7,682 nt of DNA, taken from positions 1 to 7,682 of IMG/VR virus record IMGVR_UViG_2695420859_000007; one strand, written 5' to 3'. Of the stretch, positions 207-7,404 are shown in pieces; position 1 is the first letter of the stretch, and each line of letters opens with the position of its first letter. Under the pieces are notes generated by a model that worked only from the letters and a program-made list of their open reading frames with translations, searched no databases and was not told the DNA's origin. Made by a program: the position numbers and the translations under genes. The stretch comes from a virus. Taxonomy: Duplodnaviria; Heunggongvirae; Uroviricota; Caudoviricetes.

Positions 207-431
207 TCAACACACTGGCTGTAATGCAGCGGATACCATGCGGCATTTAGCGGCATTCATCGTACACTCCACGGTTAGCTCTTCATTCGTGGCATTCACC
301 TGAAAGGTCCGGGAGTGTAATTGCGTACATTTACCACTGAACGAACCTTCAACAAGAACACGACCACGCTGCAAAATACGGAACGGAATTGTTCCCTGAA
401 AAGGTTCTACGGTTACCCGTAATTTCTTCAT
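207..431 (-). CDS. Hypothetical 74-aa protein, translationally coupled to Rz
   Basis: Its ATG overlaps the Rz stop (ATGA), and GGAGGA lies 4 nt upstream. Translates as [74 protein letters not shown], with four Cys. I do not recognise it, and it is not Bor-like. Confidence 0.45.
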
Positions 432-922
432 GTATCCTCCGGATAATAAAAAGCCAGCTTAGTGCACTGAGTGCGGATATATTCCTGCGCCCCTTCCAGC
501 TGCTTCTGCATTGTCATCAACCGTTCTCTGAGGATGAAATAATCCCGTTCAGCGGTGTCTGCCAGTCGGGGGCCGGTTGCATTATCCACGCTGGAGGTGC
601 CGGTGGCTTCACGCACGGTACCGGAGCAGGTGGCGTTGATCCGCAGGCGCTTACGACCAGCGGCAACATCAGCGCGCAGAGTTTCATTTTCAGCTCTCGC
701 ATCGGCTAATTCCTTCGTGTATCTGGCATCAAGTGCAGCAACATCACGCTGGCGCTGCTGCATATCAGTAATGGTTGCATTTGCCTGCTCCAGCTCACTG
801 ACTTTTTTATCGCGCTGCTCTTTGTAGGTTATGGCGTTATCACGGTAATGATTCAGCCCCAGACTAAGCACACCACAGGCTACCAGCAGGACAATAATCA
901 CCACACACAGAACACGGTTCAT
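428..922 (-). CDS. Rz: Spanin inner-membrane subunit Rz (i-spanin)
   Basis: From the ATG at 922: [39 protein letters not shown]...[17 protein letters not shown]...[18 protein letters not shown], closely matching lambda Rz. SD GGTGGTGA upstream. The track's GTG start at 1006 is a spurious 5' extension. Confidence 0.9.
517..702 (-). CDS. Rz1: Spanin outer-membrane lipoprotein subunit Rz1 (o-spanin), embedded in the +1 frame of Rz
   Basis: [22 protein letters not shown]... with a lipobox (VSAC) and a Pro-rich body ([27 protein letters not shown]) matching lambda Rz1. Confidence 0.85.
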
Positions 923-923
923 A

Positions 924-1010
924 TCACCACCAACGGATTGCCCAGACCAGAACAGCAATGGCCACAATACGAATAGCAAATGCCATTGCCCGAATAAGTT
1001 CAGCACTCAT
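924..1010 (-). CDS. Small hydrophobic ORF-3 (28 aa), ending 1 nt before the Rz ATG
   Basis: Translates as [28 protein letters not shown]. It shares the motif RA[LM]AFAI[KR].VA[VI] with ORF-2. It sits in a third frame and may be a frameshifted fragment. Confidence 0.25.
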
Positions 1011-1021
1011 CTTTTTAAAGT

Positions 1022-1144
1022 TCACGATTTCAGCGCAATGACCAGTTTTGCCAGCCCATACAGCATCGGAGACACAGCAATACCAACAGCCACCCACTTA
1101 ATAGCAAAAGCCAGCGCTCTGCTGATGTCATCAGTCACTGTCAC
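1022..1144 (-). CDS. Small hydrophobic ORF-2 (about 40 codons, GTG start overlapping the ORF-1 stop)
   Basis: GTGA overlap with the ORF-1 stop. Translates as (M)TVTDDISRALAFAIKWVAVGIAVSPMLYGLAKLVIALKS*. It is the C-terminal part of track ORF 1022..1294. Confidence 0.3.
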   Translation of the reverse strand: MTVTDDISRALAFAIKWVAVGIAVSPMLYGLAKLVIALKS

Positions 1145-2134: not shown

Positions 2135-3124
2135 CTAAATACGCACTTTAAGATAAGTCAGCCCCGGATGAAGCCAGTAAGCCGGCACTTTTTTAAAAGG
2201 TGGAGTATTAAAATCACGAAGAAGAGCCTCCCGCACAATTGCATCCTTATCAGCACCACTGGCCAGCGCTTCAATCTCAGCGGCTACCTGAAGATATCCC
2301 ATGCAACGGCCCACGCGCTTCATCAGCCCCTGCTTTTTATTGTTCTTCAGGTAATCAATGGCAAATTCAATGAGCTCCTCACTGTGCTGGTGCGATGGAG
2401 GTGTTACTTTCCCATTTTCTGAGATGGTTATTTTCCCGGCATCACCGGATACAACAAAGGATGGCCGGTTACACTCCCATTCCAGCTCACTGAAATTATC
2501 ATTATGAATACTGAAACACTCTGCGAGATTTCTGCTCATCACTTTCCGGCAATAATCGTAAAACGCAGCAAACTGCTCATCGCGGCGTTTTTTTTCAGGC
2601 TGCTGAAGATGCTCTTTCAACCATGAAGCGCAGCTTAGATTCGCCGCGCGATCAGGAATAGCTTCTTTCATTTCGTCTGCTGCAAGCACCTCATTTTTTG
2701 TTGGGGTGCTTTTTTTCAATTCAGCGATATAGCACTCCAGTTTTTCAATACGCGATTCAACATCATCTTTTTCTGACCGCAGTGTTGACGGCGGCATCTT
2801 CAGAGAACAAGTAATTCTTCCCGGTAGCTTTCCTTTGTAGGTTATCAATACATCCTGCGCATCTAAAATTACGGGGCGCTTTTCCGGTGACGGTTCATCC
2901 CCTTCGCATAACCCGGCAACAATATCCATGAAAAACTGCTTCGCCTGTTTTTTCGCCTCAGCTTCGTAGAACTCCAGCGTGGCACCTTCAGTACGGTCAA
3001 GACTAATCGCCACATCTGGCAACAACAGTGACGGATACCCACCAATTTCCAGTGCCACAGTAACAGTAATCTTATCCGGGTAATTATTTATCCCTTTAAC
3101 ACCCAGTTCGTATTTTTTCTTCAT
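2135..3124 (-). CDS. Hypothetical protein, 329 aa, moron inserted between holin and endolysin; function unknown
   Basis: Long uninterrupted ORF on the operon strand. Its ATG lies 4 nt after the holin stop, with GGGGAG about 7 nt upstream. No signal peptide or TM segment. It has a charged, helical central region (SRIEKLECYIAELKK...EKKRRDEQFAAFYDY). I found no Walker, HNH or other motif I can trust. The DNA looks more AT-rich than the flanking lysis genes by eye. Confidence 0.7.
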   Translation of the reverse strand: MKKKYELGVKGINNYPDKITVTVALEIGGYPSLLLPDVAISLDRTEGATLEFYEAEAKKQAKQFFMDIVAGLCEGDEPSPEKRPVILDAQDVLITYKGKLPGRITCSLKMPPSTLRSEKDDVESRIEKLECYIAELKKSTPTKNEVLAADEMKEAIPDRAANLSCASWLKEHLQQPEKKRRDEQFAAFYDYCRKVMSRNLAECFSIHNDNFSELEWECNRPSFVVSGDAGKITISENGKVTPPSHQHSEELIEFAIDYLKNNKKQGLMKRVGRCMGYLQVAAEIEALASGADKDAIVREALLRDFNTPPFKKVPAYWLHPGLTYLKVRI

Positions 3125-3128
3125 CGCT

Positions 3129-3335
3129 TTACTCCCCCCGCGCCGCCTTACGACGGTCCTCCCTGATTTTGAAATACAGGTTAGTCAGATACGTCAGCAG
3201 GCCAAACAGCAGACTTCCCAGCACACCTATTGCCACCCACTGGGACGGAGAGACTTTGTCCAGCAGCTGCAGTAACCAGTATCCCGTCCCCACCGCTGAC
3301 GTGGTGTATGACACACCTGTTGTGATTTTTTCCAT
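3129..3335 (-). CDS. S: Holin, phage-21 S21-type pinholin (class II, two TM domains)
   Basis: 68 aa, [68 protein letters not shown]. This is near-identical in pattern to S21 (..[52 protein letters not shown]). Confidence 0.85.
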
Positions 3336-3380
3336 CTGATGTATGTCTCCGTCACCGCCGACAGAAAATGAAAGTAAAGA

Positions 3381-3416
3381 AAAACAAAAAAGCCGCCAGT
3401 GTCACCCACTGACGGC
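3381..3416 (-). terminator. Rho-independent terminator between nanS-p and the holin gene (minus-strand orientation)
   Basis: Minus strand GCCGTCAG-TGGGTGACA-CTGGCGGC followed by TTTTTTGTTTTT: an 8-bp stem with one G-U pair. Confidence 0.5.
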
Positions 3417-3580
3417 CAACTCCGGGAGCCGTGATTATGGCATTCAGGCTCTGCTAAAAATGCCAGATAACATTCCGGCCTCCCCTGATTCAGGTTATAA
3501 ATGACACAATATCTTGACAACATCCGTCACTATCTGTCAGAAAATGTACTGCCAGATATAAGTATCATGTGAAGTACATC

Positions 3581-3617
3581 TACCCGTTTTAGCCAGCGTC
3601 CTTCAGAGTGGGCGCTG
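3581..3617 (+). terminator. Rho-independent terminator oriented for the plus strand, abutting the nanS-p 3' end
   Basis: Plus strand AGCCAGCGtCC-TTCAGAGT-GGgCGCTGGCT followed by TTTTTTT. The minus-strand reading has no U-tract after the hairpin. Confidence 0.45.
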
Positions 3618-3627
3618 GCTTTTTTTA

Positions 3628-5412
3628 TTATGCTGCGGGTGCATTTATCTCCAGCACCAGACTTTCTATCTCAACGCCATACGCTGCATTTTTTGTAACA
3701 TCCGTCAGCGTCAGCGCATTCAGTCCCAGTGTCAGACTGTCTTTTATAACCTGGAATGCCGGGCCAGCCACTCCATTCAGTTTCGGAGTAACCGTGGCAC
3801 TGCCGGCGGTGAACACCAGCTCCAGCGTCTGCCAGTCGTTACCGTAATCGCCGAACTCCCCCAGCTTCGTGTTTCCGGCTTTCCTGTGATGCATCAGATT
3901 CACTCTGCCGTCAGTGGTCTGAGTGAAGTACGACATCAGGAACGGATTACCGGTACCCGTCATCGCCACACCATCAGGAACGGGAGCATCCGTATACAGA
4001 TAAATCCCCAGCCCGAACTGATTGTTGGTCAGTGCGCCTGACAGGCGGAACTTACAGGTCAGTCTGCCGCCCTGTGTCAGCAGGGTAATTGCGTCATCCA
4101 CCGGATGCGTCAGGGACCAGGTTTTATTGCTCTGCTTGGTGATCTTAAATACACCATCTGACAACTGAATTCCGCCATCCTTAATGCTCCAGCCCTGCGC
4201 AGCAGCCTCTCCGGCTGCCGGCAGCAGGGAGATTGTGCGAACGGACGTATCTGCAGACGGACCCGATGGCGTGTTGCCGCCGGGCGAGGGTTTGATTTCC
4301 GGTGCCTTACCACTGATGAAGGCTGAGGTGCGCCCGGCTGCGTTCAGAATAGCGGTTGCCAGACGATCCGGAATAATGCTCCTGCGCGCCCATGAACTGA
4401 AATGTGTCGGGCGGTTTGATGATACCTGGTTTCCATTCGTTCTCGATGCCGCACCGTAATATCCTGATGCCGGAATATCCGGATCTTCTGCCGGCGCGTT
4501 AGTGGCGGTATTGACACCGTTACCGTCTGTCATGAAGGGCACAAAATAAACGCCCTCACTCTCCCTGTTTTTATACCCGCCGTACACGGTGTCGTAACTG
4601 CCACCATGGCACTGCGCGTTAAACACGGAGAGGTCAGCACGAAACTGTGTCAGCATGGCTGTAAACAGCGCAGGTTGCTGTGCGTGGGTGGCGGCGCTCA
4701 TGTCAAACTCACCCTGCATCCAGCAGACGGCCAGCAGAACGTTTTTGGGATTTTTCTGCAATGCCGCTTTTGTGCGGGAAATCAGATCCTGATATAACGG
4801 CTTGCCCACCCCCCAGCGTGCCGAATCCTGACTGGCCCCCGTGGACTCGCTGAATGTCCCCTCCGCGCCCTGGGTAAATGCCGAACCACCACGACAGCAT
4901 GGTACCAGCAGGATCCCCGCGTTATTCGGGATATACGGGAGCAGTTTTTTGGCAATATGTAAACCCTGGCCGACACAGCCGTACTGCCCTTTGCTCAGGT
5001 CAGCCCTCGGATGATTCAGCGTACTCATATCCTGCACATCATGCAGACAGTGGTCAGCCGGAATAATATCGTTATATCTGCAGGCAGCCCCGCCCGGCGT
5101 CACTGTACTGCGGCGCGCCAGCTGTTTAATGCGCGGATCCGGAGCATCGTATGAATCCGGCAGCGGAAGCCCTTCACCGTAAGCCATGGCATTGGACTGC
5201 CCGGCCAGTACGATGACGTAGTACCACTCCGGCTCAGTTGCACCACTGACCACCACATCACCTTCTGCTGTAATCGCCTGCATCAGGGTATAAGGGGTTA
5301 TGGCCACCGGACTACCAAACGGCTGCCAGCCCTCTTTCAGTTTGTGTGTCAGCTTTTCCGCAAGGTCTGACGGCGACGCCGCCCTGACAACATCATAATG
5401 TTTAAATGTCAT
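3628..5412 (-). CDS. nanS-p: Prophage-encoded 9-O-acetyl-sialic acid esterase NanS-p (SGNH/DUF303-type esterase with a C-terminal lectin-like domain)
   Basis: 594 aa. The N-terminus MTFKHYDVVRAASPSDLAEKL and the esterase motif LAGQSNAM match the YjhS/NanS-p proteins found downstream of stx in Stx phages, as I recall them. The start has a good SD (GGGAGGA). Its position immediately upstream of S is the usual one. Confidence 0.85.
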   Translation of the reverse strand: MTFKHYDVVRAASPSDLAEKLTHKLKEGWQPFGSPVAITPYTLMQAITAEGDVVVSGATEPEWYYVIVLAGQSNAMAYGEGLPLPDSYDAPDPRIKQLARRSTVTPGGAACRYNDIIPADHCLHDVQDMSTLNHPRADLSKGQYGCVGQGLHIAKKLLPYIPNNAGILLVPCCRGGSAFTQGAEGTFSESTGASQDSARWGVGKPLYQDLISRTKAALQKNPKNVLLAVCWMQGEFDMSAATHAQQPALFTAMLTQFRADLSVFNAQCHGGSYDTVYGGYKNRESEGVYFVPFMTDGNGVNTATNAPAEDPDIPASGYYGAASRTNGNQVSSNRPTHFSSWARRSIIPDRLATAILNAAGRTSAFISGKAPEIKPSPGGNTPSGPSADTSVRTISLLPAAGEAAAQGWSIKDGGIQLSDGVFKITKQSNKTWSLTHPVDDAITLLTQGGRLTCKFRLSGALTNNQFGLGIYLYTDAPVPDGVAMTGTGNPFLMSYFTQTTDGRVNLMHHRKAGNTKLGEFGDYGNDWQTLELVFTAGSATVTPKLNGVAGPAFQVIKDSLTLGLNALTLTDVTKNAAYGVEIESLVLEINAPAA

Positions 5413-5491: not shown

Positions 5492-5595
5492 CTACAGCCC
5501 AAGAAATGAAAAAAGGCCACGCAGTTGCGCAGCCTGATAAACCCTGGTTAAAATCCACACGATAACAACACAACAATATCAGTATCTCATGCTAT

Positions 5596-5621
5596 TGCCC
5601 GAACCCATTCGGGCATTTTTT
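5596..5621 (+). terminator. Rho-independent terminator (plus-strand orientation), convergent with the one at 5628..5651
   Basis: Plus strand TGCCCGAA-CCCA-TTCGGGCA followed by TTTTTT. Confidence 0.5.
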
Positions 5622-5627
5622 ACCCAT

Positions 5628-5651
5628 AAAAAAGCCCCTCCGGAGAGGGGC
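5628..5651 (-). terminator. Rho-independent terminator (minus-strand orientation)
   Basis: Minus strand GCCCCTC-TCCG-GAGGGGC followed by TTTTTTAT: a 7-bp GC-rich stem, 4-nt loop and U-tract. Confidence 0.55.
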
Positions 5652-5818
5652 ATGTTTGCATGCACATTCTTTTTCTTGCATGGTGCCGGGTGCCTCCCGG
5701 TGAATTCAGTATCAGCACCTGAATCCGCGATTATCACATATACCTGGTTGCTGATTGCCCCTCCGCACAGGGGGATTCACCATGCAGTAGTATTTTTAAT
5801 AAACAGTAAACAAAAAAA

Positions 5819-6582: not shown

Positions 6583-7404
6583 CTATCTGGTCACCTTTTT
6601 CAGTTGTTGTTCTGCCCATGCTTCTTCAATATCAAACTGCACCACCAGCGTATCGTAAAAACGTTTAACTGTTTTTTTCCATGTATCAAGAGATATGGCA
6701 TCGGTTACATTACATATGGCATTAAATGCCTCCGTTGAAGGTAATCTTTCATAGCCACGACCACCACAACGCTGGCAGTCTCTGATAACAGGCATACCAC
6801 GTTTTACCGACTCTTCACGATGAATGGCAACACCTCGCCCACGACAATCTTTACAGGCGGTGGAAACCTCCCCCTTCCCTCCACACTCCGGACAGGCAAC
6901 TTTTACCACCTCCCTGACTTTTTTCCATTCCTCCCAGTAAGACGGATACACGCCTTTTGTGCACTTTGCCCACACTGGCGGCTTACCATCCGGATACTGG
7001 ATCTTGTTTGTAAAAACCTCGCTTTCAATAAATTTTTTTCCGTGACAACAGGGGCACTGTTTTTTGCTCGCCGCGCTACGGGCATAATCTTCAAACGCAT
7101 ACGAAGCCATAATACGCATCACTGCCGGTTTTATTTCTGCCGGGAGTTTTCTTAACGCCGCCACGCGATCACACCGACTGAGTGCATATTCTGTCAGCAA
7201 TTCTGTTGCCCGCTCTCTGTCATTCATACTAATGCCCATTTTCCCAAGGAACGCAGAAAACCCCATCTCAGCCCAATTCTGTGTCATGCCCTGCGCAGCC
7301 ATCACATCAGTGATACTCAGCGTATCTTTCGACGTTGAGGCCGATGCATCAGTCAGGCCGGGGGATTTTGGGGAGTAGTATTTCGGTAAATCTTCCAGTT
7401 TCAT
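6583..7404 (-). CDS. Q: Late-gene antiterminator Q (lambda Q family, carrying an extra Cys-rich insertion)
   Basis: 273 aa. The N-terminus (MKLEDLPKYYSPKSPG...TDVMAAQGM) and C-terminus (YDTLVVQ...KKVTR) line up with lambda Q as I remember it. It has four CxxCxGxG motifs (CPCCHGKK, CPECGGKG, CKDCRGRG, CQRCGGRG). It sits directly downstream of rusA and upstream of a lambda pR'-like promoter. Confidence 0.8.
   Translation of the reverse strand: MKLEDLPKYYSPKSPGLTDASASTSKDTLSITDVMAAQGMTQNWAEMGFSAFLGKMGISMNDRERATELLTEYALSRCDRVAALRKLPAEIKPAVMRIMASYAFEDYARSAASKKQCPCCHGKKFIESEVFTNKIQYPDGKPPVWAKCTKGVYPSYWEEWKKVREVVKVACPECGGKGEVSTACKDCRGRGVAIHREESVKRGMPVIRDCQRCGGRGYERLPSTEAFNAICNVTDAISLDTWKKTVKRFYDTLVVQFDIEEAWAEQQLKKVTR

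Follow-up and report, generated by a model that had tools for sequence, protein, structure and literature searches.

A homologue of pasC, the gene of an Hfq-dependent lambdoid-prophage small RNA, lies convergent to the late operon between nanS-p and the holin gene

The DNA that we analysed (7,682 nt, hereafter the window) carries, between nanS-p and the holin gene S, a unit that is already described: pasC, which encodes an Hfq-dependent small RNA of lambdoid prophages and which we annotate at 3549-3626 on the plus strand. That the unit is a pasC homologue is close to certain. A first-pass annotation had proposed a small plus-strand RNA unit at this place; it was right in that the element is a self-contained sRNA gene convergent to the late operon, although this element was known before. 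The sequence-only reading had thus recovered a genuine, experimentally verified small-RNA gene. Taken as one statement, that 3549-3626 (plus strand) is a member of the PasA/PasC family and acts by the mechanism proposed below, the reading is in our view very likely correct.

The window represents the late region of a lambdoid prophage in minus-strand orientation, with the following landmarks around the unit.

7404..6583, minus strand: gene for the antiterminator Q.
5811..5622, minus strand: STnc100/PasD-type leader RNA (full-length Rfam match, 147.8 bits).
5560..5621, plus strand: AgvB (Rfam, 96.5 bits, all positions equal to the model consensus).
3628..5412, minus strand: nanS-p, a DUF1737-SASA-DUF6645 sialate O-acetylesterase gene, with its stop codon at 3628-3630.
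3391..3417, minus strand: late-direction intrinsic terminator just upstream of S, not part of pasC.
3129..3335, minus strand: S, class II (phage 21-type) holin gene (Pfam PF04971, E = 8.8e-33).

A DUF1327 protein, lysozyme R and Rz are encoded beyond S on the minus strand, and the unit occupies the 292-nt nanS-p/S intergenic region (3336-3627). The resulting order of esterase, reverse-oriented sRNA and class II holin is that of the PasA/PasC family, in whose published arrangement PasA and PasC directly adjoin holin-lysozyme genes and flank a sialic acid esterase gene. The elements of the unit, together with one site in the nanS-p 3' end, are placed as follows.

3514..3519, plus strand: probable -35 element TTGACA, an exact consensus and conserved, with a putative promoter role.
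3535..3545, plus strand: probable -10 region, comprising TGT at 3535-3537 (extended -10 TGn) and CAGAAA at 3538-3543.
3549..3626, plus strand: pasC small RNA, 78 nt (CUGCC...GGCUUUUUUU), delimited by end-to-end alignment with PasC of E2348/69.
3549..3590, plus strand: variable 5' body of the RNA, in which the variation among family copies is concentrated.
3591..3626, plus strand: intrinsic terminator and likely Hfq-binding module, with GUUUU before the stem and a U tail to 3626.
3591-3601 with 3610-3620, plus strand: terminator stem, closing the loop 3602-3609.
3592..3602, plus strand: region equivalent to the PasA seed (5'-GCCAGCACCU in PasA, 5'-GCCAGCGUCCU here), within the 5' arm of the terminator stem.
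3650..3660, minus strand: CUGGUGCUGGA in the 3' end of nanS-p, the same sequence as the target-motif site reported for PasA from RIL-seq in the esterase gene E2348C_1246.

The identity of the unit was established by comparison with the published gene. PasC of EPEC E2348/69 is listed on the minus strand of NC_011601.1 at 1290909..1290832, with a size of 79 nt and the Northern probe CGCTGGCTAAAACGGGTAGATGTAC (Pearl Mizrahi et al. 2021, PMC8550237, table S6). The probe is the reverse complement of 3574-3598, which is its single exact match in the window, and in this orientation it detects a plus-strand RNA. Alignment of the E2348/69 PasC with 3549-3626 gave 76 identities over 78 positions, the mismatches being confined to 3555-3556 in the 5' body, where the window has GA and PasC of prophage PP5 has AG. 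Both genes share the aligned start and end, the terminator and the upstream TTGACA block, and both lie on the strand opposite to a SASA esterase gene with their last U 2 nt from its stop codon. They differ in what follows on the other side, since ISEc13 separates pasC from the lysis genes in PP5, whereas in the window the holin gene comes next. The best phage match was phage 2B8 (NC_049952), with 97.3% identity over 3336-3627, and Zhu et al. place pasC between esterase and holin in this phage (10.64898/2026.05.13.724894).

An Rfam scan of the whole window (Rfam 15, E <= 1) returned no family over 3549-3626, while the same scan identified AgvB and STnc100 elsewhere; membership of the PasA/PasC family therefore rests on pairwise homology and on the literature. 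The conserved ~42-nt 3' region by which covariance models recognise the AgvB/AsxR anti-sRNAs (RF02702, RF02703) was likewise absent from 3549-3626, and AgvB was found only at 5560-5621. These anti-sRNAs, a family defined by sequestration of a core sRNA (GcvB or FnrS), resemble PasC in being short Hfq-bound prophage sRNAs that run against the late operon at a moron boundary, with a conserved 3' terminator module and a variable 5' part (Tree et al. 2014), but they have a different promoter and no sequence homology with it. A literature search for EcOnc51, EcOnc52 and PasC yielded nothing beyond PMC8550237, PMC4104026 and 10.64898/2026.05.13.724894.

The 3' end of the gene is a strong intrinsic terminator. 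The hairpin AGCCAGCGTCC-TTCAGAGT-GGGCGCTGGCT (3591-3620) has 11 pairs, 8 of which are G-C, and an 8-nt loop, and its T7 tail, ending at 3626, stops 2 nt short of the nanS-p stop codon. It ranks first among the 21 terminator-like sites of the window (7.7 ± 3.1 in shuffled sequences). The plus-strand terminator that the first-pass annotation had postulated is thus present, with its T run reaching 3626; the location given for the unit, 3514-3617, holds, but an end at 3617 cuts the 3' arm of the hairpin. Its remark that such a terminator is unfit for the minus-strand late operon was borne out as well, because AAAACGGG comes after the hairpin when it is read on the minus strand, so that it can terminate plus-strand transcription only. 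For the 78-nt RNA the predicted fold is the terminator hairpin, at -24.1 kcal/mol (z = -3.0 against shuffles). When the 11-pair stem was imposed on eight representatives of three unit types, 89.8% of the cells were paired, compared with 20-49% in slid registers. Compensatory changes occur at two stem pairs between PasC, PasA and the second type of unit described below (G-C to A-U, and C-G to U-A); seven stem pairs are invariant across the eight representatives and hence uninformative. sRNAs of this kind are typically bound by Hfq at a 3'-terminal run of at least 6 U and at a U-rich stretch that precedes the hairpin.

The promoter is less easily read. TTGACA is found at 3514-3519, as had been claimed, and the hexamer occurs 3 times in the window against 4.7 expected, so that hexamers alone are not above chance. 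A sigma-70 scan of the window called neither of the two promoters that had been proposed, and it reported fewer promoter-like sites in the window (5) than in shuffles (8.1). What lifts TTGACA above chance is its conservation and its fit to the published RNA 5' end, not the sequence match itself. Among the family copies in IMG/VR it stands at a fixed distance in 180 of 181, in a scan whose pattern did not demand TTGACA but did require TGTCTGT and 7 nt of each stem arm, and is biased to that extent. The hexamer is invariant across PasA, PasC and the diverged second unit, which shares the promoter layout as TTGACA-N18(..TGT)-GAAAAA. Besides, the block CTGTCTGTCAGAAAAT is nearly invariant in the unit-1 copies, and the stretch from ACAATATCTTGACA to GAAAAT forms a near-invariant block in the IMG/VR copies; the copies start to vary near the RNA 5' end, mostly within the first 40 nt of the RNA.

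Between TTGACA and CAGAAA the spacer is 18 nt and ends in TGT, from which a start at about 3549-3551 is expected. The published PasC 5' end, which derives from RNA-seq coverage and Northern size and not from 5'-end mapping (PMC8550237), aligns to 3549 and is compatible with TTGACA-N18(TGT)-CAGAAA. CAGAAA is poor by consensus, its final T being missing, and the alternative hexamer GAAAAT (3540-3545) needs a 20-nt spacer; for both reasons the -10 assignment is one that we infer. Our proposal of TTGACA-N18(TGT)-CAGAAA as the promoter is an addition to the literature and would apply to both unit types, in which the arrangement is conserved. Position 3532 of the putative spacer (CTATCTGT) is unusual in the window in being A; it is G in E2348/69, phage 434 and phage 2B8.

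The other promoter of the first pass, CTGTCA (3534-3539) followed after 17 nt by TATAAG (3557-3562), exists where it was said to be; it fails as a promoter, since TATAAG falls at +9 to +14 within the RNA and is not conserved. It was rejected also because it would yield an RNA of ~58 nt and because PasA reads TAGAAG at this position. The sole nearby call of the scan, TTCAGA-N18-TATTAT at 3602-3631, sits in the hairpin loop and T tract and is spurious. A promoter common to AgvB and pasC was discarded too; that of AgvB is probably TTGCGC-N18-TAAAAT.

Comparison of loci placed this gene within a family of tandem units. PasA, transcribed against its flanking genes, is reported at 743499..743415 (85 nt, major form) or to 743264 (236 nt, minor form), with EcOnc51 and EcOnc52 as EHEC homologues (PMC8550237, table S6). 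PasA and PasC begin at the same aligned position (CUGCC). PasA and PasA-2 (prophage PP2 of E2348/69; EcOnc51 in Sakai Sp12) share with PasC the promoter block, a homologous 5' body, the aligned 5' end, the outer 7 bp of the terminator stem, the locus and the orientation. The PasA hairpin differs in an A-U instead of a G-C at pair 8, a longer loop and a tail of G then T7, and between PasA and the esterase gene lies a second unit of ~150 nt, which is missing from the window. Two tandem units are present in this intergenic region in phage 434, E2348/69 PP2 and O157 prophages; the window, PP5 and phage 2B8 have one unit only, in an intergenic region that is ~155 nt shorter. In every case the unit is laid out as TTGACA, 11 nt, CTGTCTGT, (CA)GAAAA, the body, UUUU or UUUG, AGCCAGC-loop-GCUGGCU and a T run. 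In the phage 434 record both hairpins carry a terminator annotation, opposite in strand to the late genes. The IMG/VR pattern scan found 120 loci with 181 copies, namely 79 PasA-like, 26 PasC-like and 76 of unit 2; an earlier pattern, TTGACA-N11-CTGTCTGT, was too unspecific and its hits were left out of the analysis.

The second unit is absent from the window and was examined at three comparison loci.

364-443, minus strand, in L005: unit 2.
998-1075, minus strand, in L006: unit 2.
2546-2700, plus strand, in L001: unit 2.

Unit 2 (EcOnc52 in Sakai Sp4; the 3' part of the 236-nt PasA) adjoins the esterase stop codon and has a terminator and a promoter-like layout of its own. It shares with PasC the hairpin arms UUUUAGCCAGCG...CGCUGGCU followed by T7, and with the window the ATTATG junction with the esterase stop codon; it differs from PasC in a shorter, unrelated RNA body and in another loop. 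In Sakai Sp4 an IS629 lies ~55 nt upstream of unit 2, and the Hfq-CRAC peak EcOnc52 still maps there. On this comparative evidence unit 2 is probably an independent third paralogue with its own sRNA gene, and not only PasA read-through. From its sequence, pasC looks like a deletion fusion in which a crossover within TTTTAGCCAGCG joined the body of unit 1 to a terminator located where that of unit 2 lies. A PasC-type hairpin was found on one unit 2 copy in IMG/VR. Like the promoter proposal, these two readings of unit 2 and of pasC are drawn from sequence and extend the literature.

The PasA seed, taken from PMC8550237 (fig. S5), lies in the terminator stem, a placement that has been called unusual (10.64898/2026.05.13.724894). 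The equivalent region of the window is of the PasC type (GCCAGCGUCC) and identical to that of E2348/69 PasC, for which it is a proposed seed.

In complete E. coli genomes, 1901 of 5426 matched part of the pasC-bearing region and 690 matched at least 80% of it. A holin-anchored search with one genome per species covered 65 loci of the phage 21-type holin and found the unit only in Escherichia albertii; it agrees with the published range of PasA/PasC (Escherichia and Shigella only) and yielded no deeper diversity for covariation.

Existence, size, Hfq dependence and RIL-seq partners of the RNA have been established for the near-identical EPEC gene. Northern blots of E2348/69 revealed a PasC RNA of ~79 nt that depends on Hfq, and in an hfq mutant under activating conditions the log2 fold change was -2.1 for pasC (adjusted p = 0.015) and -2.8, confirmed by Northern blot, for PasA, whose RNA-seq signal is higher than that of PasC (PMC8550237). 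EcOnc51 and EcOnc52 were reported as Hfq-CRAC peaks in EHEC (PMC4104026), and in Sakai their coordinates coincide with homologous units that run against the late genes, in a record whose version may differ from that used in 2014. In the available portion of the RIL-seq tables PasC is the second RNA of its chimeras, which join it to bfpB (359), eae-cesT (216), pflB (154) and yfiD (100) and further to rpsE, fabZ, wzxE, spr and the rne leader (PMC8550237). The partners in these rows are trans targets, and apart from the rne 5' leader RNA there is no sRNA among them. Published work demonstrates no function for any PasA/PasC RNA.

Based on these data we propose the following mechanism. In the lysogen, pasC would be transcribed from its own promoter (TTGACA at 3514-3519, the 18-nt spacer ending in TGT, and CAGAAA), convergent to the Q-dependent late operon, and the intrinsic terminator abutting the nanS-p stop codon would halt this transcription. 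Hfq would be bound by the terminator hairpin, the U tail and the preceding U-rich stretch, and PasC would then act in trans by pairing with numerous mRNAs of the core genome and of virulence genes. Incidentally, the terminator would keep plus-strand transcription from going antisense into nanS-p. For this strain we infer the expression of the gene, the exact promoter elements and any regulatory outcome.

The first pass had suggested that the RNA modulates holin or nanS-p expression. Such a cis-antisense action appears unlikely. In it, PasC would pair either with late RNA that reads through the nanS-p-S intergenic region or with the 3' end of nanS-p, and would in this way affect processing, the stability of nanS-p mRNA, or the expression of the holin and the time of lysis. 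Late transcripts that cross 3626..3549 are, from their sequence, perfectly complementary to PasC, and RIL-seq recorded 668 PasA chimeras with late-strand RNA at 1290785-1290960 (PP5 esterase 3' end and pasC antisense) as well as 34 with the PP2 esterase 3' end; chimeras at esterase 3' ends mean that sense and antisense RNA meet on Hfq at this junction in vivo. This nanS-p also contains the PasA target-motif site CUGGUGCUGGA (3660..3650), with which PasC would pair using two G-U wobbles. Against this, PasC overlaps no coding sequence and no ribosome-binding site, and the S start codon lies 214 nt from the PasC 5' end with the late-direction terminator in between. In duplex predictions against the S start, the nanS-p start and the nanS-p 3' end, 27%, 25% and 39% of shuffled RNAs did at least as well as PasC, and the best duplex site of PasC on the late transcript was likewise no better than shuffled controls; computation thus lends no support to holin or nanS-p as targets. 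Neither the holin nor the own esterase is a partner in the available PasC rows of the RIL-seq data. From what is generally known of lambdoid late transcription, Q-antiterminated late transcripts are moreover expected to greatly exceed the sRNA after induction. Pairing across the junction is a reading for which the 668 PasA chimeras leave room, and in its wider form PasC, together with PasA and unit 2, would besides its action in trans determine the amount of transcription, or of stable mRNA, that extends to the holin gene, or would control the nanS-p mRNA 3' end in the lysogen. We regard this as rather improbable; if true, it would tie a virulence-linked sRNA to prophage lysis control.

There are two further explanations. 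In one, the unit lacks a promoter of its own and the 78-nt RNA is the stable, Hfq-protected 3' fragment of a longer plus-strand transcript, which begins farther upstream and runs antisense to S and to the lysis genes. From the Northern pattern of PasA, Zhu et al. (10.64898/2026.05.13.724894) consider that its 5' end may be produced by cleaving a longer transcript, and the weak -10 region of a promoter that no scan called points the same way. Nevertheless we judge this to be improbable, since both unit types preserve TTGACA, the 18-nt spacer and TGT, at a fixed distance in 180 of 181 copies, whereas the sequence just downstream varies, the EcOnc52 peak of Sakai Sp4 persists despite the IS629 insertion upstream of unit 2, and the 236-nt form of PasA has an unchanged 5' end and owes its extra length to the 3' side. 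In the other, the hairpin is an insulating terminator that blocks stray plus-strand transcription into nanS-p and makes no functional RNA. The terminator does abut the nanS-p stop codon, and the phage 434 record lists the equivalent sites simply as terminators. This explanation is very improbable, because a bare terminator leaves the conserved upstream block unexplained and because, according to the available portion of the EPEC data, the near-identical gene gives a distinct and abundant RNA that depends on Hfq and has dozens of partners seen reproducibly. Our preferred reading remains that of a trans-acting sRNA with its own promoter.

Several observations concern the neighbourhood of pasC. 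At the counterpart of the terminator at 3391-3417, the phage 434 record likewise marks a terminator. In EPEC RNA-seq the mean counts are ~100 for the esterase (expressed) and ~3.5 for the holin (not expressed), a contrast consistent with termination before S in the lysogen. The STnc100 match (5811-5622, minus strand) corresponds to the pR' leader and tR' RNA downstream of Q, and this leader RNA belongs to the same family as PasD (Zhu et al., 10.64898/2026.05.13.724894). AgvB has a probable promoter of its own, TTGCGC (5525-5530), N18 and TAAAAT (5549-5554), which is overlapped by a second strong late-direction intrinsic terminator (5535-5514, minus strand). Two reverse-oriented Hfq sRNA genes therefore bracket nanS-p, AgvB upstream and PasC downstream. 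A 53-aa ORF at 3343-3504 (plus strand), upstream of the pasC promoter, runs across the late-direction terminator; its counterpart is annotated as a hypothetical protein in phage 2B8, and it is probably not a gene. Finally, the DUF1327 (YdfR-like) ORF between S and R (3124-2135, minus strand) encodes 329 aa, compared with 114 aa in O157, and its domain match is confined to the first ~100 residues.
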